The position numbers and the translations under genes were made by a program. DNA of 64,000 nt, taken from Candidatus Nomurabacteria bacterium (lineage in GTDB: Bacteria > Patescibacteriota > Saccharimonadia > JAGOAT01). The notes beneath the pieces are model-generated. The model searched no databases and was not told the origin of the DNA. It saw only the letters and a list, made by a program, of their open reading frames with translations. The stretch spans positions 30,321 through 94,320 of the forward strand of contig JACKGM010000002.1 of assembly GCA_020639315.1 (NCBI GenBank). Direction: 5' to 3'. Of this stretch, positions 8,873 through 61,632 are shown piece by piece. Numbering within the stretch: position 1 is the stretch's first letter; each line of letters begins with the position of its first letter.

Positions 8873-9200
8873 TATAGCCCCCGAAAAACAAAACCTGTAC
8901 TTTTGACTGTATCTTATGGTCTATAGAGCAAGCTAAAACCAAAACCAGACTTTTGACCCAACTCTAGAGTCTATAAAGCTAGTTTTCTTACTCACCATAT
9001 CTATGGATATGGCTCTTAAGAAGAACTACCTTTCTAGTTCTCTATAGTACAGCTCAAATTGTCCGGTTTTGTTTTGAGCTTGCTATAACTGCCACTATTG
9101 CTCCTCACCATATCTACGGATATGATTTGTCACAATAGTGACAATTCTAGATCGATAATCTATCACCCAAAACAAACAGGTTTTGTTGTAGGCGGCTATA
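8873..9200. mobile_element. MITE-B1 copy interrupted by a nested MITE-B2
   Basis: The outer halves match the intact 167-bp B1 copies (33214..33380, 41715..41881). They are split at ggtctata^actg. Confidence 0.8.
8922..9087. mobile_element. MITE-B2 copy nested inside MITE-B1
   Basis: tatagagcaagct...gagcttgctata; homologous to 21903..22061 and 53118..53281; TATA on both sides. Confidence 0.8.
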
Positions 9201-9247
9201 GTGATATGATGAGTATACTAAATATTTAAAGATGGAGGAAAAAAAAG

Positions 9248-9541
9248 ATGTTTGATAAAGCCAAAATGATTAATCAGATGCGTAAGTTGCAAAAAGAGCT
9301 AAAAAAGCTCGAAATGACTGGTGAAGCTGGTGATGGCAAGGTCAAGGTCACTGCCAACGGTGAGCAAAAGATTGTCAGTATAGAGATAGATCCCAGTATT
9401 TTGAACGAGGAAAATAAAAACTCGATCGAAAACTGGATCAAATCTGCTACCAACCAAGCTTTTAGTCAAGTCCAGGTGGAGGCTGCCGAAAAGATGAAGG
9501 CTATGCCTGGTATGGACAAGCTCGGGATCCCAGGCCTTTAG
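9248..9541 (+). CDS. ybaB: YbaB/EbfC nucleoid-associated protein
   Basis: 97 aa, family-typical sequence, GGAGG SD. Confidence 0.85.
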   Translation: MFDKAKMINQMRKLQKELKKLEMTGEAGDGKVKVTANGEQKIVSIEIDPSILNEENKNSIENWIKSATNQAFSQVQVEAAEKMKAMPGMDKLGIPGL

Positions 9542-9548
9542 GTCATCG

Positions 9549-10136
9549 ATGCTACCGAAGGTACTCTCACAGCTAGTCGAGGAACTGAATCGATTGCCAA
9601 GTATTGGCAATCGTAGTGCCCAGAGGCTAGCTTTGGCAATTGCCAAAGATGACTACACTAGCCTAGCTCAGGCTATCTTAGATCTTAAGCAAGGGCTAAT
9701 GATTTGTCAGTATTGTCAAAATTATGCAGACCAAAAAACTTGCCAGATATGCCTTGATCCCAAGCGAGAGTCAGATAGATTGCTGATAGTTTCTAGCCCG
9801 ACAGATCTGATTGCGATCGAAAAGACCAATAATTATCGTGGTTTGTACTTTGTATTGCATGGACTAGTCTCTCCGCTCAATGGCGTGACAGAATTAGATT
9901 TGCGATTTGATTTATTGCAAGCAATGATCAAGGGCAATCAGATTGAAGAAGTGATTGTCGCGACCAATGCTAGCCTGGATGGTGAGACTACGGCTCTGTA
10001 TATTGCCAAGGCTTTGGCAGAGTTTAGTCAGCTCAAGGTTAGTAAGCTTGCCCAGGGGATGCCAATGGGTGGGGATATTGATTATACGGATCAATTGACC
10101 CTGACTAGAGCGATCGAGAATCGTCAGGTGATATAG
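9549..10136 (+). CDS. recR: recombination protein RecR
   Basis: LPSIGNRSAQRLA HhH, C4 zinc finger, Toprim domain. Confidence 0.92.
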   Translation: MLPKVLSQLVEELNRLPSIGNRSAQRLALAIAKDDYTSLAQAILDLKQGLMICQYCQNYADQKTCQICLDPKRESDRLLIVSSPTDLIAIEKTNNYRGLYFVLHGLVSPLNGVTELDLRFDLLQAMIKGNQIEEVIVATNASLDGETTALYIAKALAEFSQLKVSKLAQGMPMGGDIDYTDQLTLTRAIENRQVI

Positions 10137-10157
10137 GCTAGGAGGCCAGATTGGTAT

Positions 10158-10320
10158 TAACCCTGTTGCCATATAACCTCACGGCTTCAAAACTGCCATT
10201 TTTGCCCCAGAATAACAAAACACTTCGCAGCGTAACTCCTGTTATGCTTTGTCGTGTTTTGGTATTCTGGAATAAAAATCATCAGTTTTGACCTCGCAAG
10301 GTTATATGGCAACAGGGTTA
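10158..10320 (-). mobile_element. MITE-A copy 3 (163 bp)
   Basis: Same family and orientation as copy 2. Confidence 0.85.
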
Positions 10321-10412
10321 ATGCCCTCCGCGTGTCATCTTCGGATTACCCTTTAGGGTAATACCGGAGATCCAGTATTTGAGTTCTGTATTAGACATCC
10401 AGTATTTGAGTT
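10321..10412. repeat. REP-like module (ATCTTCGG outer-stem type) plus partial arm
   Basis: tgtcatcttcggattaccctttagggtaataccggagatccagtattt at 10333..10380. Confidence 0.8.
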
Positions 10413-32529: not shown

Positions 32530-33053
32530 CATAATTCAAATACTGGATCTCCCATAATTTCCTACGGAAATTTGGAAGATGACACACAGAGGGCATTGTC
32601 ATCCTCCGAAACTCGTCCCTTGTCTTGTCATCCTCCGAAACCCGCCCCTCTCTTGTCATCCTCCGAATCCCCGTTTCTCTCTTGTCATCCTCCGAAGTTC
32701 GGAGAACTTACGGGGGATCCAGTATTCCCGCATTTGCATTGTCATCCTCCGAAACCAGAGGGTTTACGGGGGATCCAGTATCCTGGCATTTCCATCCGTC
32801 ATACTCAGAACTTGCTCTGGGTATCCAGAAAACTAACAATAAACATTAAAAGTAACTGTATTACCTAAACCCTAAACCATTATCTAGAGTTCTGGATCCC
32901 CAACCTTTCCTTCAAATGAAAGGCGGAAAAGTCGAGGATGACCCAACTCCTGTCATCCTCCGAAACCCCCTCCCTGTCCAGTCATCCTCCGAAACCCCGT
33001 TTCTCTCTTGTCATCCTCCGAAGTTCGGAGAACTTACGGGGGATCCAGTATCC
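32530..33053. repeat. REP-like module cluster
   Basis: Antisense module 32538..32584; half-modules; sense modules 32683..32726, 32740..32782 and 33009..33053; degenerate units between. Confidence 0.85.
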
Positions 33054-33092
33054 TGTATCTTCAAGATCCACTACGCTTACAGAAACATCAGA

Positions 33093-33183
33093 TGGTGCGG
33101 ATGAGAGGATTTGAACCTCCACGGAGTTTTGATCCTCCACTAGGACCTGAACCTAGCGTGTCTACCGATTTCACCACATCCGC
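33093..33183 (-). tRNA. tRNA-Leu (anticodon CAG), long variable arm, CCA encoded
   Basis: Hand fold: GCGGATG acceptor, anticodon arm CTAGG-TTCAGGT-CCTAG, T arm GGAGG-TTCAAAT-CCTCT. Confidence 0.9.
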
Positions 33184-33213: not shown

Positions 33214-33380
33214 TATAGCCCCCATAAAACAAAACCTGTACTTTTGAGCGTACCTTACAGTCTATAGTTATCGCTATTACTCCTCACTGTGTCTACGGAT
33301 ATGATTTGTCACAATAACAACAACTCTAGATCCATAATCTATCATTCAAAACAAACAGGTTTTATTTTACGACGGCTATA
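33214..33380. mobile_element. MITE-B1 copy (167 bp including TATA at both ends)
   Basis: Homologous to 41715..41881. The right end supplies the last 6 codons and the stop of ORF 33362..34456. Confidence 0.8.
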
Positions 33381-34456
33381 GGATTAATTATCTTGCTATC
33401 CACTAGGCCGTCCTTATCCACTACTATCAGCCTTAGACTGTCAATCGGTTGATCCCCAGTCAGATTGAGGATGTTGCCTTCGAGCCAATCTAGGCTTTGA
33501 TTGACCTGCCAATAATACTGCTGGATTCCCTGATCATCTACCGAAGCTGAACCGTCATAGAGCTGGCCACTTTTTTGCTCCAAAACAGCTACTGGTGCAA
33601 GCTTTCTCTTGCCGAAATAGCTATAGATGATAGGCTTGGCGTTTTCTTTCGGCAATTCGGTAATATCTACTAGTCTTGCCTCTTCTGTTTGGTACCCTAG
33701 ACCACGATAAGTAGCTTGATTGCTAAAACCTTGCTTCTTCAGGTAACCATTTTCTCGGATAATCGTGTAATATTCTTGGTTTTCAGTCTGGAACATGCTA
33801 CCAATCTTGAGCTCCATATCATTACCTCGTGGCAGAATCAAATCAAGCTCGGTTGCCGAGAGGGGTAAATAAGTCGGATCTATGTAGCTACCCAAAATGA
33901 TTTGATCTGGGAAGCGTCTTAGCTGGCGGTTCTCGATCAAAAATGTATCTTCACCACTTCTGATGATGCTACCTTCAGGATGAAGAGCTGACAATTGATA
34001 ATCCTCACCAGTTTTTTCGGGCAATTGATCTAGCTCGACTTCTAGGATTTGGTCTGGCTGATAACCAAGTAGATTGAGGACCTCAGAGCTAATTGGGCGC
34101 TTGGTTACCTCTTGCTTACCCTCGATCAGGTAGTGTTGCCCCTTGGACAAGAGGATAGTACCTTGATTGTAAGATAGCTGATAGCCATCGGGTAGGGCGA
34201 GATCTGTGTCAGTAGCTAGCTTGAGGTTGATCGGAGTGACCCCATAGCTAGCTAGGACACTAGGGTAGGTAAGTAAGTGTTTTTTGTAGTCCTCACCTAT
34301 CAGGTAGATTGATTTGGTAGTAGGGTCGAAAATAAAGGTGTTGGGGAGGTGTTTTACCCTGAGGGTGGAGTGATAGTTTGAGTAGGTTCTAGTGAGACTT
34401 AGTGCTAGGTTGAAAGCTATTATGACCAGTAGTATCCGAAATAGAATTTTCTTCAT
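33362..34456 (-). CDS. hypothetical secreted/membrane-anchored protein
   Basis: 364 aa with an N-terminal signal anchor. Confidence 0.55.
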   Translation of the reverse strand: MKKILFRILLVIIAFNLALSLTRTYSNYHSTLRVKHLPNTFIFDPTTKSIYLIGEDYKKHLLTYPSVLASYGVTPINLKLATDTDLALPDGYQLSYNQGTILLSKGQHYLIEGKQEVTKRPISSEVLNLLGYQPDQILEVELDQLPEKTGEDYQLSALHPEGSIIRSGEDTFLIENRQLRRFPDQIILGSYIDPTYLPLSATELDLILPRGNDMELKIGSMFQTENQEYYTIIRENGYLKKQGFSNQATYRGLGYQTEEARLVDITELPKENAKPIIYSYFGKRKLAPVAVLEQKSGQLYDGSASVDDQGIQQYYWQVNQSLDWLEGNILNLTGDQPIDSLRLIVVDKDGLVDSKIINPIAVVK

Positions 34457-34523
34457 AAATCTATTTTATTATATAGGACTTTCACACTTCGTGGTAGATT
34501 TTTTAGCTCTTCAAGATGAGTAC

Positions 34524-34567
34524 CTAGAGTTGGGTCAAAAGTCTGGTTTTGTTTTTAACTTGCTATA
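34524..34567. mobile_element. MITE-B2 right-end fragment (44 bp)
   Basis: ctagagttgggtcaaaagtctggttttgtttttaacttgctata is identical to the right arm of 53118..53281. Confidence 0.7.
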
Positions 34568-34581
34568 AATAGAATGTTTAA

Positions 34582-34744
34582 TAACCCTGTTGCCATATAA
34601 ACTTGCGAGGTCAAAGCTGATGATTTTTATTCCAGACTAGCAAAACACGACAAAGCATAACAGGAGTTACGCTGCGAAGTGTTTTGCTAGTCTGGGGCAA
34701 AAATGGCAGTTTTGAAGCCGTGAGGTTATATGGCAACAGGGTTA
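34582..34744 (+). mobile_element. MITE-A copy 4 (163 bp)
   Basis: Same family and orientation as copy 1. Confidence 0.85.
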
Positions 34745-34816
34745 ATGTATAGTCGCGTAGTCGCGGACAGTTCGCGACAGTTCAGGAGATATTCGGTGTC
34801 TGAAAATATCTAGCTA

Positions 34817-36461: not shown

Positions 36462-36550
36462 GTCATCCTCCGAAGTTCGGAGAACCTACGGGGGTCCAGA
36501 GCATTGCCATCCTCCGAAACCCGAAGGGTTTACGGGGAATCCAGTATTTT
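36462..36550 (+). repeat. two tandem REP-like sense modules
   Basis: Inner stems AAGTTC/GAAC(C)T and AAACCC/GGGTTT. Confidence 0.8.
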
Positions 36551-37133
36551 GTACAGTCTCTTTTGTCTGTAGTTTAATATTAGCTAATTTGGAGGGAGTG
36601 CGAAAGTCCTATAGTGTTAGGGCAGAGAGTTTAAGTTTAATACGTCTTTTACTACTTGAACTAGTCAAACTCCTATTTCATTCAGGCTCAAAGCTTTTAC
36701 AAAACTCATCAGCTAGGTAAAATAGTACTATTAGATCCATATACGTGTCTCCTTTGTTTTTAATTTATATATGACTGAGATAATAGCAGGACTTACCTCC
36801 TGTTATCTAGGTGAATTCAGAGGAGACTCCTATATCGAGCTGGGGGTTAAGTATAGCTCTTTTTTTGGATAGATTTTAAAAGACTATGCTTTTAGCATTA
36901 TTAGCTACCTGATCTTTTTATCCCTAGTGTTTCGCTGTCATTACAGCTCATCAGAACAACTTAAGCTTGGTATTTTCAATAAAACCTAAACTAATTTGTT
37001 GACACTCTCGCTCCTCACTGCTTGTGGCGGTGAGGAGCTAATCTTTCATCCATTGTGGAGGATTACTCGATCAGAAACAATCATAGAAAGTTTAGAGAGT
37101 GCCGATCTTTTCCTTCCGGCTTGTTCGATATAC

Positions 37134-41484: not shown

Positions 41485-41698
41485 GACCCCTCCGGAACTC
41501 ACTAACCCACTTCCTTGTATTCTCTAATGCAGGATTGATACTGTGATCCTCAAAAACCTGGAGGGTTTACGAAGTTTCGCATTGTCATCCTCCGAAAATC
41601 CAAAGGATTTTACGGGGGAACCAGTATTTTGCATTGCCTGGGGTTAACTCAAATACTGGATCTCCGGTATCACCCTACGGGTAATCCGAAGATGACAG
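41485..41698 (+). repeat. 214-bp direct repeat, left copy (unique 60 bp + degenerate module + REP doublet)
   Basis: Same length as 44670..44883, with about 7 substitutions by eye. Confidence 0.85.
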
Positions 41699-41714
41699 AA
41701 GAAAAACAGATACC

Positions 41715-41881
41715 TATAGCCCTCGCAAAACAAAACCTGTTTGTTTTGGGTGATAGATTATTGATCTAGAATTGTCGCTATTGTGACAAATCATATCCGT
41801 AGATATGGTTAGGAGCAATAGTGACAGTTATAGACCATATGATACAGTCAAAAGTACAGGTTTTGTTTTTCGGGGGCTATA
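41715..41881. mobile_element. MITE-B1 copy (167 bp, intact)
   Basis: tatagccctcgcaaaacaaaacctg...caggttttgtttttcgggggctata. Confidence 0.8.
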
Positions 41882-41952
41882 TAAAGTCCTGTGGGATCTT
41901 TGAGTTTGCTATATGACAGGGTTAGGGTGGTAAATTTGGGTTGGCAACGATA

Positions 41953-42258
41953 CTACTCTTGTGAGTTGTTGGGTGAGTTGCAGACCCCGTTTTCATTATA
42001 CCCAGGGCATGGGTCAGTCAAGCCTGCTAATTGCCTATAGGATCTAGTAATTATGCCGTTAATTTCCTCAGTAAGTTGATGACGTGTAACTTCTAAGTCA
42101 CGCACTGCTTGAGTAGGTGGCAAACCATAAACCGGAGAACTCATCCTTGTAACATTATCTCTAGTCCCCTCTTGAAGAGTAATTATACGAGCAAGTTCTT
42201 GTACTCTATTACATTTGCGACATTTAGCTGGTATTTCTGATAGGGAGTTTGATTCCAT
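41953..42258 (-). CDS. hypothetical Cys-containing protein
   Basis: 101 aa, CRKC...CPGYNENGVC; diverges from the IS left end. Confidence 0.4.
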   Translation of the reverse strand: MESNSLSEIPAKCRKCNRVQELARIITLQEGTRDNVTRMSSPVYGLPPTQAVRDLEVTRHQLTEEINGIITRSYRQLAGLTDPCPGYNENGVCNSPNNSQE

Positions 42259-44669: not shown

Positions 44670-44883
44670 GACCCCTCCGGAACTCACTAACCCACTTCCT
44701 TGTATTCTCTAATGCAGGATCGATACTGTGATCCTCAAAAACCTGGAGGGTTTACGAAGTTTCGCATTGTTATCCTTCTAAAATCCAAAGGATTTTACGG
44801 AGGAACCAGTATTTTGCATTGCCTGGGGTTAACTCAAATACTGGATCTCCGGTATTACCCTACGGGTAATCCGAAGATGACAG
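44670..44883 (+). repeat. 214-bp direct repeat, right copy
   Basis: See 41485..41698. Coordinates were checked against the frame of spurious ORF 44700..44903. Confidence 0.85.
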
Positions 44884-44903
44884 GAGGAGGGACGGGACTT
44901 TAA

Positions 44904-45066
44904 TAACCCTGTTGCCATATAAACTTGCGAGGTCAAAGCTGATGATTTTTATTCCAGAATAGCAAAACACGACAAAGCATAACAGGAGTTACGCTGCGAA
45001 GTGTTTTGCTAGTCTGGGGCAAAAATGGCAGTTTTGAAGCCGTGAGGTTATATGGCAACAGGGTTA
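44904..45066 (+). mobile_element. MITE-A copy 5 (163 bp)
   Basis: Same family and orientation as copy 1. Confidence 0.85.
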
Positions 45067-45135
45067 ATTAGGATATAACAAAAGAAGGTGAAAAAATTAT
45101 AAGACAATAGAGTTAATATAATCAAAATATCAAGA

Positions 45136-49910: not shown

Positions 49911-51140
49911 ATGCGTTGGAATATTAACCACTGGGTCCATCGTGTACTAGATTATCTAATAGTATTAATGCCGTTTTACGCACTGTTGGTCACCACTGGA
50001 AGACATTATCTGATAGATAGCCCTGGTTTAAATCTGATCAAGGATGGGCTGATATTTGGATTAGTAGCTTTGACTATTTTGGCCAATTTTGGCCAACTAA
50101 AATCAACATTATCAAGGTGGAGAAGTAGTAGCTTAGCCCAGATTATTATCCTTAGCTTATCTTACCTAGTGATTGGACTGATAATCAGTGCCAATAATCA
50201 TCTCGATCTGAGGACTATTGCCTATGGGATTCGATATAGCTTACTCCCAATTATTGTGTTCTTAATAGTAAGGATTTCAGACTACTCAGTTAGGCCAAAG
50301 TTGATTATTTACCCTGGTATTATCGTTAGTATATTAGCAATATTTCAATTCTTGATTCCAGCCAGCTGGTTGATAGCTCTAGGGTATGGGGAGCAGATTG
50401 GCATTAATCAATCAATTGGGCCTGGTATAGATTTCTACCGAGCTTTCTCTAGCTTAGGTGGTCCCAATCAACTGGCAGCCTACTTACTATTGCCGATCTC
50501 AATCTCACTCTACTCGAGTAGAGAAACAATTGGCTTGGCCAGGTACTATGCTGGGCTAATTCTAATGGTTGTTGGTTTAGGACTTAGTTTTTCACGCAGT
50601 GGAATGATTGCTTTAGTAGTTATTTTTTTGGTTCGTTTTTCAAGAGATTGGCGACTAAGCATCTGGATCAAGCTTACTGTCGGGTTACTCTTAGTCATTA
50701 TCAGCCTAAGCTTTTTGTTGTATCACACCAATACTGGAGTGGAAAGTTGGCTTTTACACGGTCAATTTGATGGTAAATTGATCGGATCTGATTCGGAAAG
50801 GATTGGGCATTTCAAGCGTTCGATTCAAGCAGTCATAGATCGGCCTTTTGGCTATGGCTTGGGTACAGCGGGAGCTAGTGCTTATCAACTTGGCTCCGGA
50901 TTTATACCAGAGAATAGTTTTTTACAAGAAATGATTCAAGTTGGGATAGTCGGAGCAAGCTTGATATTTGCAGTTTACTATCAGATATTTAGATATGCCT
51001 ATCGGCAACGGGGCAGAATTATTGTTGGATTAGCACTAGGATATTTTGTGATCAATAGTCTATTGCATGGCTTTAGTGATGCTAGTCTGGCTGTAGTTTT
51101 GTTTGCTTATCTTGGGAGTAGAGACCACATCAATGACTAA
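49911..51140 (+). CDS. O-antigen ligase/polymerase-like (Wzy_C) membrane protein
   Basis: 409 aa, ~10 TM, SFSRSGMIAL loop motif. Confidence 0.6.
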   Translation: MRWNINHWVHRVLDYLIVLMPFYALLVTTGRHYLIDSPGLNLIKDGLIFGLVALTILANFGQLKSTLSRWRSSSLAQIIILSLSYLVIGLIISANNHLDLRTIAYGIRYSLLPIIVFLIVRISDYSVRPKLIIYPGIIVSILAIFQFLIPASWLIALGYGEQIGINQSIGPGIDFYRAFSSLGGPNQLAAYLLLPISISLYSSRETIGLARYYAGLILMVVGLGLSFSRSGMIALVVIFLVRFSRDWRLSIWIKLTVGLLLVIISLSFLLYHTNTGVESWLLHGQFDGKLIGSDSERIGHFKRSIQAVIDRPFGYGLGTAGASAYQLGSGFIPENSFLQEMIQVGIVGASLIFAVYYQIFRYAYRQRGRIIVGLALGYFVINSLLHGFSDASLAVVLFAYLGSRDHIND

Positions 51141-53151
51141 AGTAGCGATTGTTCATGATTTCTTAGCTCATAAGGATGGTGGGGCAGAACGGGTTTTGCG
51201 TCAACTAATCAAGCTTTATCCTGAGGCTAATATCTTAACACTGACTTTTGATCCAGATCAGTTTTTTGACATTGATCCAGAGAGGGTTAAGACTAGCTGG
51301 TTGAGCCACTTACCAAAATATTTCAAACAAAATCCTAAATATCTACTGCCTCTAATTCGATCGGGGCTTAGAAGTCTACCCTCCAAGCATTACGATCTAC
51401 TGATTATTAACTCATCAGGTTGGAGTAAGAATATCGTAAAAAAGCCTGATGCTACAAAAATCGTTTATTGCAACTCACCAAACCGTCTGATTTGGGATAG
51501 TTGGCCTAGTTATTTTACCAGTAACCTTACTGGGCTATCTATATTTGCCAGGCCAGTTTTTCTTTTGCTCAATTTTTATATATCACGCTTGAGACTTTGG
51601 GATTATGATGCCAATCAGGATATTGATAAACTGATCGCCAATAGTAGCTATATTGCCAAGCGGATTTATAAATACTACAAGCTAAGCTCTCAGATCGTTT
51701 ACCCTCCAGTGGAGTTGGCTACTGAGTCGACTCTTGACTCTGAGAGTCTAGAGGTCAAGGGGGTCAGGCTTGAACCAGGATATTTTTTGTATTTAGGTGT
51801 TCTTAGTAGATACAAGCAAGTTGATATCATAATCGATAGCTTTGAGAGGTTGGGTTCGAATTATCGCCTAGTTATCGCTGGGGATGGTCCTGAGGCAAAA
51901 TCAATTGCCACTAGGGTAGGCAATATTGATAATATTGACTTTTTGGGTCGAGTGTCGGATCAGGAAAAGTTGACCCTGTTTAAGCACGCTCAAGCATTCG
52001 TCTTCCCTAGTATTGAAGATTTTGGGATTACTCCACTAGAAGCTTTGAGTCAGGCTACTCCGGTGATTGCCCGTAATGCGGGAGGACTCAAGGAGACTAT
52101 CAAGCCTGGCACTGGTGTTTTGCTTGATCAAATTAGTATCGAATCACTGACTAAGGCTATTGTAGAATTTGACCCTAGCCTATACTCCGACTCTCAGATG
52201 AAATCAGTTGCCAAGCAGTATTCTAGTAGTCAATTTGATCGAGCTTTCAAAAATTTGACCAAAGATATAGATTTTGATCATAAAAGCAGGGTAGCGATTC
52301 TGGACTGGATGGTTGACCCAATAACAATTGAGGAGTTGCTAGGCAGGGTCAAGCAAGTAGTTTCAGAAGATTATACTCAGCCGATGATTGTGATTAAGCC
52401 TTATGTCGAACACTTCAATCCAAGCAATTTTACTAAGTCTGAGTTGGCTATACTAAACCAGATTGCTACCATCGTGCCAGATGGGATTGCTTTGCAGTGG
52501 GCTGGAGTTTATCTTCAGTACAGTCGCCCCAATCTATTCAATCTGATTGGAAGCTTGGTTGAGTTGGTAGTCAATCCAGCTAGATTTGATCGAGTTTTAC
52601 CTGAGAAATTTGCTGGCAATGATTTTACTTTACCTCTGCTAAAATTTGCGCATAACCGTCAGCTCAGGATATCTATTCTAGGGGGAGATGATTCTCGGGG
52701 CAGAAAGAAGCAACTCAATCAACTATTTGGTAGGTTTGAACAATTACAGGTAATCAATGGCTATTATGATGCCAACCAAGAGCAGGAGATAGTTGATCAG
52801 ATTAACCAGTTTGCACCTGATATTTTGTTTGTGGCGACTGGTATAGGTAAGCAAGAGAAATTTATTATCAAATACTATCAGCAACTTAAGGCAAAAGTGA
52901 TTGTCGGCGAGGGGGGTAGTTTTGACTATGATAGTCTTGGTGGAAGTCAGAGAAGAGCCCCTGGGTTTGTCAAAAGACACAATCTTGAATGGGCCTGGAG
53001 ACTGCTAACCAGTCCTAGTGGTACATCAACTACCAGATTAAAAAGACAGTTATTCATTCCTAAGTTTATCTGGGGGATTCATCAATCTGCCAAAGTCAGC
53101 ACTCCAAGTAGTTCAAATATAGCAAGCTCAAAACAAAACCGGACAATTTGA
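51133..53151 (+). CDS. fusion glycosyltransferase: GT4 (N-terminal) + WecG/TagA/CpsF GT26 (C-terminal)
   Basis: FPSIEDFGITPLEA (GT4 EX7E region) and the GT26-like C-terminal half. ATGACTAA overlaps the upstream stop. The last 11 codons lie in MITE-B2. Confidence 0.7.
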   Translation: MTKVAIVHDFLAHKDGGAERVLRQLIKLYPEANILTLTFDPDQFFDIDPERVKTSWLSHLPKYFKQNPKYLLPLIRSGLRSLPSKHYDLLIINSSGWSKNIVKKPDATKIVYCNSPNRLIWDSWPSYFTSNLTGLSIFARPVFLLLNFYISRLRLWDYDANQDIDKLIANSSYIAKRIYKYYKLSSQIVYPPVELATESTLDSESLEVKGVRLEPGYFLYLGVLSRYKQVDIIIDSFERLGSNYRLVIAGDGPEAKSIATRVGNIDNIDFLGRVSDQEKLTLFKHAQAFVFPSIEDFGITPLEALSQATPVIARNAGGLKETIKPGTGVLLDQISIESLTKAIVEFDPSLYSDSQMKSVAKQYSSSQFDRAFKNLTKDIDFDHKSRVAILDWMVDPITIEELLGRVKQVVSEDYTQPMIVIKPYVEHFNPSNFTKSELAILNQIATIVPDGIALQWAGVYLQYSRPNLFNLIGSLVELVVNPARFDRVLPEKFAGNDFTLPLLKFAHNRQLRISILGGDDSRGRKKQLNQLFGRFEQLQVINGYYDANQEQEIVDQINQFAPDILFVATGIGKQEKFIIKYYQQLKAKVIVGEGGSFDYDSLGGSQRRAPGFVKRHNLEWAWRLLTSPSGTSTTRLKRQLFIPKFIWGIHQSAKVSTPSSSNIASSKQNRTI

Positions 53152-53281
53152 GCTGTACTATAGAGAACTAGAAAGGTAGTTCTTCTTAAGAACCATATCC
53201 ATAGATATGGTGAGTAAGAAAACTAGCTTTATAGACTCTAGAGTTGGGTCAAAAGTCTGGTTTTGTTTTTAACTTGCTATA
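53118..53281. mobile_element. MITE-B2 copy (164 bp)
   Basis: tatagcaagctcaaaacaaaaccggac...tctggttttgtttttaacttgctata. Confidence 0.85.
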
Positions 53282-53285
53282 TTAC

Positions 53286-53643
53286 TATGGGTCTAATTCA
53301 AATACTGGATCTCCGGTATTACCCTCCGGGTAATCCGAAGATGACAAGAGGGGGTATTGTCATCCCAATACCGTTAACTTAAGGAAAGATCAGTATCTTT
53401 TGGAGTTCTACTAATGCTTGACTTGTACATTGAATAAAACTTACAAAGTCTTAAGTTAATGGCATTGTATTGTCATCCTCCGAATTCTCATAGAGAATTA
53501 CGGGGGATCCAGTATTCTGTATTACTGGGATTCAATTCAAATGCTGGATCTCCCATAATTTCCTCAAGGAAATTTGGAAGATGACACGGAAAGGGCATTG
53601 TCATCCTCCGAAGTTCAGAGAACTTACGGGGGATCCAGTATTT
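53286..53643. repeat. REP-like module cluster (interrupted by mini-MITE-E)
   Basis: Antisense module 53300..53346; doublet from 53470 to about 53586; sense module 53599..53643. Confidence 0.85.
53366..53467. mobile_element. mini-MITE-E (102 bp, 18-bp TIR caataccgttaacttaag) with 11-bp flanking duplication
   Basis: tattgtcatcc at 53355..53365 and again at 53468..53478. Confidence 0.55.
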
Positions 53644-54855: not shown

Positions 54856-55182
54856 GCCCTCCTCCTGCCACCAAACCAAAATCCTACTCATCCCTCTTGC
54901 GTCATATTCCAAAATCCCGCAGGGATTTATGGGATATCCACCTCCTCCTGTCATCTTCGGATTACCCTTTAGAGTAATACCGGAGATCCAGTATTTGAAT
55001 TGGATACCTGTAAATGCAGAGATACTGGATCCCCCGTAAGTTCTCTGAACTTCGGAGGATGACAATGCACAATGCCGAATACTGAATCCCCCGTAAACTC
55101 CTTCGGAGTTTCGGAGGATGACAAGAGAGGGGCGGGTTTTGTAGGATGACAATGCAAAAGTGTAGTTTCGGGAGGGGTAACA
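54856..55182. repeat. REP-like module cluster
   Basis: Sense modules 54901..54939 and 54949..54996; antisense modules 55021..55064 and 55078..55123; half-modules. Confidence 0.85.
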
Positions 55183-59762: not shown

Positions 59763-61151
<1,389 letters not shown>

Positions 61152-61155
61152 GTCG

Positions 61156-61572
61156 ATGATTAGAGTCAAGATTATTACTCCTAGCCAAGAGTTGGTCGAT
61201 CAAGAAGTAGATTCGATTAGCCTACCGACCGAACAAGGACTAATTACTATTCTTTCTGGTCATGCGCCTTTAGTCTCCAAGCTAAGTGTGGGAGAAATCC
61301 ACTATAAGATAGGTGACCAGATCAGCTACATTGCTACAGATAGTGGGCTAGTAGAAGTCAAATCTGATAATAGTGTAATGGTGATTGCCGAACTAGCTAC
61401 TAAGTCTAGCGAGATTGATCTCGATGCTACTCTCAAGGCCAAGCGTGAAGCTGAGAAGTTTTTGGCAACCAAGGAAGAGCAAGATACTGCCTATTATCAA
61501 GCACTCGCTAGGCTAGAGCTTGAATTAGCCAAGCTAAGGGCTGCCAAGAGGCATCGACCTGGTAGGGGTTAA
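61156..61572 (+). CDS. atpC: F0F1 ATP synthase subunit epsilon
   Basis: ATG 61156 (MIRVKIITPS). The track start at 61138 is a TTG extension. Confidence 0.85.
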   Translation: MIRVKIITPSQELVDQEVDSISLPTEQGLITILSGHAPLVSKLSVGEIHYKIGDQISYIATDSGLVEVKSDNSVMVIAELATKSSEIDLDATLKAKREAEKFLATKEEQDTAYYQALARLELELAKLRAAKRHRPGRG

Positions 61573-61577
61573 GTAGA

Positions 61578-61623
61578 GTCATCCTCCAAATTTCCATAGG
61601 AAATTACGGGGGATCCAGTATCC
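61578..61623 (+). repeat. single REP-like module filling the atpC/uvrC convergent gap
   Basis: gtcatcctccaaatttccataggaaattacgggggatccagtatcc. Confidence 0.8.
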
Positions 61624-61632
61624 CAAATGATA

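Follow-up and report, generated by a model that had tools for sequence, protein, structure and literature searches.

Three unrelated genes take their final codons and stop from the termini of a small TA-flanked repeat

Palindromic TA-flanked repeats described in other bacteria

RUP of Streptococcus pneumoniae is a MITE thought to be mobilized by IS630-Spn1 (PMC2229807). The repeat family analyzed here, MITE-B, resembles RUP, which is ∼100–170 bp long, has TIRs of the IS630-family type, inserts at TA and forms a long stem-loop (PMC2229807). However, the host phylum differs (MITE-B belongs to Saccharibacteria/CPR) and the sequences are unrelated. Moreover, RUP has been reported in intergenic regions and inside IS elements but not at gene ends, whereas MITE-B is also found at gene ends, and the autonomous partner of MITE-B was seen only in other contigs, mostly of the Saccharibacteria type.

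The Correia repeats (NEMIS, CREE) of Neisseria share with MITE-B the TA target and TATAG... junctions (PMC2649163), and their TIRs of ∼26 nt with an A-rich tract, TATAG[CT]GGATTAACAAAAACCGGTAC (PMC2649163), resemble those of MITE-B. They are palindromic elements of 105–155 bp, and some copies disrupt or are fused to coding sequences, as is the case for MITE-B. This is a resemblance only, as the Correia consensus TATAG[CT]GGATTAACAAAAATCAGGAC and its variants were not matched at the two ends of MITE-B. In shuffle tests of Correia-likeness, the TIRs of the B1 and B2 copies examined below gave p ∼0.002–0.02, and there was no signal for the family consensus or for the TIR of the autonomous IS, so that homology between these TIRs and the Correia repeats is not robust. 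No mobilizing transposase is named in the Correia literature compared, whereas MITE-B has an IS630-family partner.

ERIC/IRU and YPAL elements at the 3′ ends of enterobacterial genes are, like MITE-B, small palindromic TA-flanked repeats that are read within host ORFs and alter the C-terminus (PMC2229807), and ERIC at the 3′ ends of Yersinia genes changes mRNA decay (PMC2229807; PMC10969869). MITE sequences fused to ORFs have also been described (Delihas 2008). However, such repeats often carry an open frame throughout, whereas MITE-B is closed in all frames within 17 codons and can therefore close off an ORF but cannot form an internal part of it. RPE of Rickettsia are likewise palindromic mobile repeats that enter protein-coding genes in a small, reduced genome (PMC2229807); they lie in frame inside genes and are translated as internal segments, whereas insertions of MITE-B persist only at the very 3′ end of a gene, where they bring the protein to a stop. 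The capping of an ORF by a MITE is textbook MITE biology and a known kind of event.

Structure, autonomous partner and target of MITE-B

We analyzed a stretch of 64,000 nucleotides (the window) and found seven matches to the MITE-B terminus pattern, compared with none expected in shuffled sequences. A family search using nhmmer detected six full copies in the window, which are 83–98% alike, and a total of 58 unique full copies, whose flanks are unrelated (Table 1). The window accordingly contains 12 ends and one 46-nt solo fragment, rather than the roughly seven B-family ends counted in an earlier note on this DNA; the last 44 nt of the fragment (34524–34567) are 100% identical to 53238–53281. 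The copies are 159–179 nt long (159–167 nt for those that end the three genes), and TIRs of 25–27 nt, of the form TATAGC-N6-AAAACAAAACC-N-G, are present at both ends of every full copy. The element proper has TAG...CTA as its outermost bases, so that each junction reads TA-TAGC...GCTA-TA.

Table 1. Genes, MITE-B copies and tRNA discussed in the text (positions within the window)
Feature	Position	Strand	Remarks
MITE-B1 with nested MITE-B2	8873..9200	+	B1 = 8873–8923 + 9088–9200; B2 = 8924–9087
AlkD-like DNA alkylation repair gene	21171..21914	+	Complete DNA_alkylation profile, residues 12–231 of 247
Degenerate MITE-B2, 159 nt	21903..22061	-	Two matched segments 92% and 89% identical to the 53118 copy
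tRNA-Leu(CAG)	33093..33183	-	30 nt off the left end of MITE-B1 33214..33380; ARAGORN and Rfam
MITE-B1, 167 nt	33214..33380	+	Between ORF3 stop and tRNA-Leu; nhmmer hits; 83% complementary to 41713–41893
ORF3, conserved hypothetical, 364 aa	33362..34456	-	100% match to NCBI P0241; 69% to sister-genome ortholog P0242
Solo B2 right-end fragment, 46 nt	34522..34567	+	66 nt upstream of ORF3 start codon; nhmmer profile positions 119–164
Intact MITE-B1	41715..41881	-	Intergenic; 72 nt downstream of the stop of gene 41953..42258 (-)
Glycosyltransferase, GT4 Glycos_transf_1 + WecG/TagA	51133..53151	+	NCBI start 51133; ORF 51103..53151
MITE-B2	53118..53281	+	Near-perfect 164-nt palindrome; TA duplications 53118–53119 and 53280–53281 included; nhmmer profile positions 1–166

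In one phase the terminal TAG is an immediate stop, and in the other two a stop follows after 3–17 codons; all six entry phases, counted over both ends, thus meet a stop after 1–17 codons. An ORF running through the whole element, as in RPE-type internal segments, was absent, all six phases being closed. Because MITE-B begins with TAG at both ends and every phase is closed within 17 codons, the supply of a stop codon is automatic. The family is small, non-coding, dispersed and multi-copy. The copy at 53118..53281 is 98% complementary to 8923–9087, and its RNA fold has an energy of –71.7 kcal/mol (z = –10). The whole-length hairpin is kept across 54 divergent copies, with double changes in 26 of 41 pairs, and 92.6% of the hairpin cells are paired, compared with 78% in shuffles and 33–47% when the partners were slid. 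A search for known RNA families in Rfam (gathering thresholds) yielded three tRNAs only.

Autonomous elements of 1098–1110 bp with the same termini were found at L015, L038, L039 and L044. Each contains a single ORF of 341–345 aa that matches Pfam DDE_3 and the IS630 family transposase model NF033545 of NCBIfam (182–191 bits, cut-off 100). These elements lie in contigs other than the window, mostly of the Saccharibacteria type, and a tblastn search of the window with the transposase gave no hit. The window proteins and the MITE copies match Saccharibacteria MAGs, and a cyanobacterial origin, which the look of the repeats had suggested, was rejected on these grounds. We infer that MITE-B is non-autonomous and arose by deletion from an IS630-family insertion sequence that is widespread in Saccharibacteria. 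The TIRs, the TA duplication and the IS630 partner bear out the earlier classification of this repeat as a MITE.

The size of the duplication can be read from the nested copy at 8924–9087, where nhmmer detected B1 positions 1–54 and 49–167 flanking one full B2. Excision keeping one TA restores the GGTCTATAACTG of intact B1, whereas excision of all of 8924–9087 leaves a 2-nt gap compared with intact B1 copies; the left end of the nested copy reads TAGAGC, with one mismatch, and 2 nt are duplicated. MITE-B duplicates the 2-bp TA, as this copy shows. The target is TA, preferably within CTAG, and not the TATA-like sequence suggested earlier: among 55 reconstructed targets, C occupied position –1 in 30 and G position +1 in 29, compared with a background of 21–23%. 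TA duplication and a preference for CTAG are known for IS630 family elements (PMC2170065). The constant TATA at the junctions is accounted for by the TA duplication together with the TA of MITE-B itself.

Repeat-encoded ends of three genes

According to the earlier note, three unrelated genes owe their final codons and their stop to MITE-B termini; this was confirmed at all three positions, and all three are real genes. No strain with an empty site was found at any of the three loci, and the native gene ends given below are therefore reconstructions. Every contig retrieved by exact-protein look-ups (AlkD, its 126-aa neighbor, YbaB at 9248..9541 and the 101-aa gene at 41953..42258) either had the same insertions or was broken or rearranged inside the repeat.

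The AlkD-like ORF ends gct tat agc aat taa, with the degenerate copy 21903–22061 contributing its first 12 bases, TATAGCAATTAA, and its last three sense codons and TAA stop (21903–21914) consist of the TA duplication and the MITE. At its gene-facing end, this copy lacks one G compared with the consensus, which places the TAA in frame; the 1-nt deletion cuts the tail from 10 to 3 residues. TA excision gave a native end of ...RGLVA-TAA, with YSN gained in the present ...GLVAYSN. AlkD likely loses no residue; its own TAA stop would have been the target and have been split by the MITE, with YSN appended. This reconstruction fits the lengths of 14 aligned homologs, most of which end 2–6 residues past the conserved Tyr (P0121 ends with FYLSLY and the stop). 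The MITE at AlkD is present in all three readable assemblies.

ORF3 ends cct ata gcc gtc gta aaa taa (PIAVVK and the stop), inside the right end of the copy at 33214–33380. The MITE-B1 right end supplies its last five sense codons (IAVVK) and the TAA stop, the Ile being kept from the native ATC. According to TA excision, the native end was ...INPI-TAG, to which the gain of AVVK gives ...INPIAVVK. It is likely that ORF3 also loses no residue: the insertion would have occurred one codon before the TAG, with ATC (Ile) becoming ATA (Ile), the TAG displaced and AVVK appended. The ortholog of ORF3 in the sister genome ends with ...SKILGL and the stop.

The glycosyltransferase is identical to NCBI P0001 (672 aa) except for two residues and has the same MITE-derived tail. 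It ends ...SSN IASSKQNRTI (C-terminal peptide ...SSSNIASSKQNRTI), and codons 53119–53151 (ata gca agc tca aaa caa aac cgg aca att tga) lie within MITE-B2 53118–53281; the TGA stop and the 10 sense codons before it are hence MITE-encoded. TA excision in silico yielded a 33-codon read-through into REP-like repeats, and a tidier tail of five codons is obtained under a TATA model. This is likely the only one of the three genes with a swapped tail, and the earlier tail would already have been repeat-encoded, the 33-codon read-through having given way to a tail ending IASSKQNRTI. One other assembly is readable at this gene end, and the contig breaks inside the MITE. The view that the native C-termini had been replaced or trimmed proved wrong for two of the three genes, as AlkD and ORF3 only gain residues and the glycosyltransferase tail is swapped.

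In the sister genome, all three gene ends are free of MITEs, but the only MITE-free orthologs are 65–69% identical and their tails have no unambiguous alignment with those of the window. When the 3′ ends were aligned automatically with those of the sister genome, the native stops could not be fixed, and a manual alignment of the ORF3 stop codon was not reproduced.

Insertion sites and competing explanations

We compared 54 independent insertion sites, pooled over many genomes, with a null model in which ORFs of at least 100 aa served as crude gene calls. Forty-four sites were intergenic, six lay in the last 15 codons and four in gene bodies. For the last 15 codons, 8.0–9.4 sites were expected from the TA sites outside gene bodies; the last two codons contained two (3.0–3.9 expected) and the last five codons four (4.2–5.3 expected). 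Because six were observed compared with 8.0–9.4 expected in the pooled family sample, the 3′ ends are not enriched family-wide relative to intergenic DNA, contrary to the preference that the earlier note had suggested and in line with the outcome that this note had named as refuting it, and the three gene-end hits on which that suggestion was based are not above a simple null model. Gene bodies contain ∼70% of all TA sites but only 4 of the 54 insertions, and this strong depletion reflects selection. Gene 3′ ends are not specially attractive to MITE-B; TA/CTAG targeting and purifying selection suffice. The other explanation that had been offered, tolerance of C-terminal change, survived these tests, with no 3′-end excess and 4 of 54 sites in gene bodies.

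We consider it highly probable that the three gene ends are explained by an IS630-derived MITE that targets TA/CTAG and survives in spacers, stop codons and last codons. IS630 transposases cut and paste into TA, duplicating it, here with C-TA-G as the favored context. Insertions in gene bodies would be removed by selection, so that the surviving copies would lie in spacers, stop codons or the last few codons. TAA and TAG stops contain the TA target, and an ORF hit near its end would read into the inverted repeat, from which it would gain a new stop codon preceded by a short tail. The tails, which would follow the conserved domains, are probably neutral. With 86% of its sequence coding and a median spacer of 25 nt, the genome is compact, and where spacers measure 25 nt, a good part of the places at which a TA-targeting element can land safely consists of stop codons.

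Some observations would also agree with active targeting of gene 3′ ends, in which a transposase or host factor steers MITE-B to stop codons or terminators. C-TA-G contains TAG, 41 of the 55 reconstructed targets read TAA or TAG, the stop codon itself was the target TA in two cases (AlkD and L086), and two of the four window insertions outside gene bodies lie at most two codons from a stop, compared with 0.4–0.6 expected. However, this excess concerns n = 4 in a window picked for this very feature, the pooled 54 sites have no excess in the last 2, 5 or 15 codons, 44 of them, including one inside another MITE, are plainly intergenic, and no terminator-like site adjoining the copies was found; such targeting is quite unlikely. 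An extremely unlikely alternative is a 4-bp TATA duplication, under which the native ends would have been longer (AlkD by 20, ORF3 by 8 and the glycosyltransferase by 5 codons) and all three C-termini replaced. Every junction does read TATAGC...GCTATA, the glycosyltransferase tail would close after five codons, and the L007 and L025 ORFs would close at once. The nested copy, however, restores intact B1 only when 2 nt are kept, not 4, and the autonomous partner belongs to the IS630 family, which duplicates TA. Furthermore, the palindromic CTAG consensus known for IS630 is obtained with the TA model, and a TATA duplication would place the AlkD end 25 residues past the conserved Tyr, a tail longer than in all 14 aligned homologs.

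It is also conceivable, albeit very unlikely, that the copies have been exapted, the hairpin acting as a 3′ UTR stabilizer, RNase III site or terminator, or the tails being useful, with the TAG and the closed frames as adaptive features. The maintenance of the hairpin and its double changes would fit this possibility, as would the AlkD copy, which is old (89–92% identical to the 53118 copy), occurs in all three assemblies and carries the tail-shortening deletion; mRNA processing is affected by Correia and ERIC elements (PMC10969869). However, the covariation is nearly without G-U intermediates, which indicates DNA-level symmetry rather than RNA pairing, and tail sequence and length vary with phase and orientation, the gene ends carrying both orientations. 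Terminator-like T tracts and promoter consensus were absent as well: terminator and simple sigma-70 consensus scans at the three gene-end sites detected none inside the copies, although this consensus may not fit Saccharibacteria promoters. A more far-reaching proposal, that the full-length palindrome, kept with compensatory changes in many Saccharibacteria, and the stop-first termini are selected features that let the element settle at stop codons and 3′ ends of the ultra-compact genomes of CPR, with the hairpin serving as a 3′-UTR stabilizer, processing site or terminator and the host dependent on some copies, appears unlikely.

The findings also bear on annotation: P0001, P0241 and similar Saccharibacteria proteins have been deposited with repeat-encoded tails foreign to the ancestral protein. 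In addition, MITE-B causes breaks in assemblies and occupies the ends of contigs to which binning has given unrelated taxon names. Our literature search found no paper mentioning Saccharibacteria together with MITEs, and the present analysis documents, across a CPR lineage, an IS630 element paired with a MITE and a clear target of the CTAG type. Genes with Pfam domains that end in a MITE terminus were also found elsewhere, namely those encoding a coupling-protein-like ATPase (L007), a DHO_dh protein (L028) and a P-type ATPase (L029).

Gene ends within MITE-B copies

The terminus pattern of MITE-B, a family of short palindromic repeats, matched seven positions in the window and none in shuffled sequences, and is therefore no chance match. 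There are six full copies and one solo fragment (see the table), and every full copy contains TATAGC-N6-AAAACAAAACC...GGTTTTGTTTT-N6-GCTATA. The predicted fold of subtype B2 is a 164-nt hairpin (–71.7 kcal/mol, z = –10). The last 44 nt of the solo fragment are 100% identical to 53238-53281; since a B1 copy lies at the other end of ORF3, B-family sequence occurs on either side of this gene.

Coordinates of genes, repeats and related elements (in the window unless a locus is named)
Feature	Position	Strand	Detail
Glycosyltransferase ORF	51103..53151	+	C-terminus ...SSN IASSKQNRTI*
AlkD-like ORF	21171..21914	+	3' end gct tat agc aat taa
ORF3	33362..34456	-	3' end cct ata gcc gtc gta aaa taa
B2	53118-53281		full copy
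B2	8924-9087		full copy, nested in B1 8873-9200
B2, degenerate	21903-22061		full copy
B1	33214-33380		full copy
B1	41715-41881		full copy
B1	8873-9200		full copy, interrupted by B2 8924-9087
Solo B2 right-end fragment	34522-34567		46 nt; 66 nt upstream of ORF3 start codon
Autonomous IS630-family IS	L015 4266-5375		contig label Saccharibacteria
Autonomous IS630-family IS	L038 1207-2304		contig label 'bacterium' only
Autonomous IS630-family IS	L044 2256-3353		contig label 'bacterium' only
Autonomous IS630-family IS	L039 2184-3281		contig label Alphaproteobacteria
REP-like repeats	2343-2477, 10325-10385, 18226-18700, 24765-25096, 32532-33070, 36474-36553, 41579-41702, 44764-44886, 53289-53643, 54891-55157, 61572-61624
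Third repeat family	2479-2648, 34577-34746, 44899-45068		direct
Third repeat family	8697-8869, 10155-10323		inverted
tRNA-Leu(CAG)	33093-33183		start 30 nt from end of B1 33214-33380

An earlier note had claimed that MITE-B termini supply the last codons and the stop codon of three unrelated genes, and the coordinates and 3' codons were exactly as claimed. Codons 53119-53151 of the glycosyltransferase (NCBI start 51133, 672 aa) lie within a B2 copy, the final 12 bases of the AlkD-like ORF are the beginning of the degenerate B2 copy, and the 3' end of ORF3 falls in the right end of B1 33214-33380. All three ORFs are genuine genes: Pfam domains were found in the glycosyltransferase (Glycos_transf_1 at residues 218-355 and WecG at 494-639 of 682) and, complete, in the AlkD-like protein (DNA_alkylation, residues 12-231 of 247), and the ORF3 protein, for which there was no Pfam match, is 100% identical to the NCBI protein P0241 and 69% identical to its sister-genome ortholog P0242.

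Native ends were reconstructed by excising each element in silico with one TA retained. For AlkD, excision gives gct TAA (...RYYRGLVA*), suggesting that the MITE hit the stop codon itself, changing TAA to TAT and adding YSN before a new TAA, which comes into frame only through deletion of a consensus G; with that G retained, the tail would have 10 residues. Most of 14 aligned AlkD homologs end 2-6 residues past a conserved Tyr, and the nearest (P0121, 65%) ends FYLSLY*. A TATA model, by which the AlkD tail would have 25 residues, longer than in any of these homologs, was rejected. For ORF3, excision gives ccT Atc TAG (...INPI*), so that ATC would have become ATA (both Ile) and AVVK* would have been gained. 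The sister ortholog ends ...SKILGL*; an in-frame alignment by eye of ATCTAGAT with CTCTAGAT, with a one-codon indel, is suggestive only, as MAFFT did not recover it. Excision from the glycosyltransferase opens 33 more codons (ITMGLIQ...PLT*) into a REP-like repeat array. The right flank of this MITE is clearly homologous, and the left partly homologous, to the spacer of the REP-like repeats; the insertion site of B2 was therefore probably an older repeat by which the tail was encoded already. Conservation of this protein extends to ...FIWGIHQ, and the stop of the sister protein lies 6 residues further on. The proposal that native C-termini had been replaced or trimmed thus survives only for the glycosyltransferase, which appears to have exchanged a non-conserved tail; by these reconstructions, AlkD and ORF3 would have gained 3-4 residues and lost none. 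In the sister genome (GCA_017983775.1) and the matching Logan contigs, none of the three gene ends carries the MITE; a B1-like fragment is present elsewhere in the sister genome.

Derivation from an IS630-family element

The B2 copy nested in B1 8873-9200 shows recent mobility and defines the target duplication. Intact B1 copies read GGTCTATAACTG at the insertion point, and the interrupted copy reads GGTCTA|TA-GAGC...GCTA-TA|ACTG. When the unit TATAGC..GCTATA is deleted in full, 2 nt are missing relative to intact B1 copies, so exactly one TA belongs to the target and the duplication is TA. A 4-bp TATA duplication is rejected, the left terminus of nested B2 being TAGAGC (one mismatch) with one TA duplicated; the constant junction TATA combines the duplicated TA with the terminal TA of the element itself.

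MITE-B termini were found 1098-1110 bp apart at four loci on other contigs (L015, L038, L039 and L044), each enclosing one ORF of 341-345 aa with a Pfam DDE_3 match and HTH domains, which scored 182-191 bits against NCBIfam NF033545 (IS630 family transposase; cut-off 100). Members of the IS630 family insert at TA, which is duplicated, and IS630 favours TA inside CTAG (PMC2170065). The reconstructed MITE-B targets (n = 55) show the same CTAG preference: position –1 is C in 30 of them and position +1 is G in 29, the background frequency being 21-23%. The shared termini, the transposase and the target preference together identify MITE-B as a MITE, as its designation had implied, and as IS630-derived, and the TATA-like target motif suspected earlier was mistaken: the target is TA, preferably in CTAG.

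A family profile search gathered 58 unique full copies. In an alignment of 54 copies from the window and loci L007-L128 (A3), changes on both sides occurred in 26 of 41 pairs, along the whole 166-nt hairpin; 92.6% of cells were paired, compared with 78% after shuffling and 33-47% after sliding of the partners. G-U intermediates were few, and the variable hexamer beside TATAGC always matched its partner. This compensatory change points to DNA-level symmetry of the two arms, maintained in many genomes, rather than to RNA structure, and leaves slight room for a functional role.

Insertion sites relative to genes

We considered whether gene 3' ends are preferred targets or merely tolerate C-terminal change, both of which had been suggested. 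The null model was the MITE-excised window (59 ORF-based genes, 86% coding, median spacer 25 nt). Spacers and the last k codons were taken together, and of the TA sites in them the last k codons held 9.6% for k = 2, 24% for k = 15 and 39% for k = 35, or 15, 31 and 47% when weighted by the target matrix. By the same gene calls, 44 of 54 independent host insertion sites were intergenic, 6 lay in the last 15 codons (8.0-9.4 expected) and 4 lay deeper in ORFs, namely the glycosyltransferase and three weak ORFs. Gene bodies hold ~70% of all TA sites, and MITE-B is strongly depleted from them; compared with spacers, gene ends held no surplus of the 54 sites. In the window alone, which was picked for this feature, two of four sites were ≤2 codons from a stop (0.4-0.6 expected; not significant). 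Enrichment at gene 3' ends is thus absent, and tolerance of C-terminal change accounts for the observed pattern. Gene-end capture recurs in 10 of the 58 copies (~17%) by ORF length, or in 6 (~10%) when the count is restricted to ORFs that have a Pfam domain or conserved ortholog; domain-bearing genes ending in a MITE terminus elsewhere encode a coupling-protein-like ATPase (L007), a dihydroorotate dehydrogenase (L028, domain complete) and a P-type ATPase (L029).

The element proper begins with TAG at either end. Entry with TA as codon positions 2-3 gives an immediate stop (L007, L025, L028 and L114 all end L*), and the remaining two phases reach a stop after 3-17 codons, with tails YS... or IA.... 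With all phases closed, the supply of a stop is a mechanical consequence of the termini, and nothing is special in the three copies. The data thus show IS630-type insertion at TA or CTAG with TA duplicated, frames closed at both ends of the element, and gene bodies depleted of it. We propose that purifying selection would clear intragenic insertions; with short spacers, stop codons and last codons would be among the few safe TA sites, and short repeat-encoded tails would be neutral.

Bacterial MITEs in general have terminal TA, long stem-loops and fusions to host ORFs (Delihas 2008, PMC2229807), and MITE-B behaves likewise, its closest analogue being RUP with IS630-Spn1. Its termini resemble Correia repeats (consensus PMC2649163), but the similarity is not robust, and read-through is impossible, unlike in RPE or the ORF-carrying ERIC and Correia forms. 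Such events are already known; the family itself may be undescribed, and we found no paper mentioning Saccharibacteria and MITEs together.

Other genomes and other repeats

A terminus-pattern scan of species-representative genomes gave 42 loci, about half labelled Saccharibacteria/Saccharimonadia (or Patescibacteria) and many others in bins under unrelated taxon names, with many matches ≤ ~50 nt from a contig end; a metagenome scan gave 73 further loci. A cyanobacterial origin of the window is rejected. A Candidatus Saccharibacteria MAG encodes an essentially identical glycosyltransferase (two substitutions) with the same tail, on an 8-kb contig that stops 38 nt into the MITE. Short-read assemblies are broken by the repeat, which may mislead binning or labelling. 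MITE-bearing contigs occur in bins labelled Gammaproteobacteria, Alphaproteobacteria and Pseudonocardiaceae (L003, L008, L011, L021, L033, L034, L036, L040, L041, L043 (CAYINT01...), L026, L039), and ten contigs of a Gammaproteobacteria-labelled bin have a MITE end at or ≤ ~50 nt from the contig end. The window's species is itself labelled both 'Candidatus Saccharibacteria' and 'Candidatus Nomurabacteria' (P0001, P0241). The contig of L131 (ENA ERZ27309329 k141_95734, 472-799) is 99.9% identical to window 9034-10402 from inside the nested B2 onward, with different upstream sequence, which reflects either chimeric assembly at the repeat or a rearrangement involving copies of the MITE.

Intra-window repeats make up 8.4% of the window. 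A second, very abundant system consists of REP-like units of ~45 nt, TGTCATC(C/T)TC(C/G)GA - stem - loop - stem - ACGGGGGATCCAGTAT, in either orientation and often arrayed, whose stems vary between copies yet remain complementary; 28-nt tandem half-units occur at 18226-18364 and 32597-32700. A third family (~170 nt, copies 95-99% identical, ends AACCCTGTTGCCATATA...) is probably another, younger MITE. The TAG of gene 27..803 overlaps a repeat at 802-844 (repeat region 801-844), the stop of gene 8172..8528 is within a repeat at 8523-8691, and gene 61138..61572 adjoins the repeat at 61572-61624 (repeat region 61570-61624).

B1 33214-33380 now separates tRNA-Leu(CAG) from the ORF3 stop, where the reconstructed spacer is ~25 nt and that of the sister genome (L046) 68 nt. 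Any promoter of this tRNA must be confined to the 30 nt left between them or to the MITE itself; neither that gap nor the B1 copy showed a sigma-70 consensus. Between the AlkD MITE and a convergent 126-aa gene there is ~750 nt of extra DNA (22062-22811; 55 nt in the sister genome), with an ORF (22358..22720, 120 aa) that is called as a gene in a Logan contig (L053).
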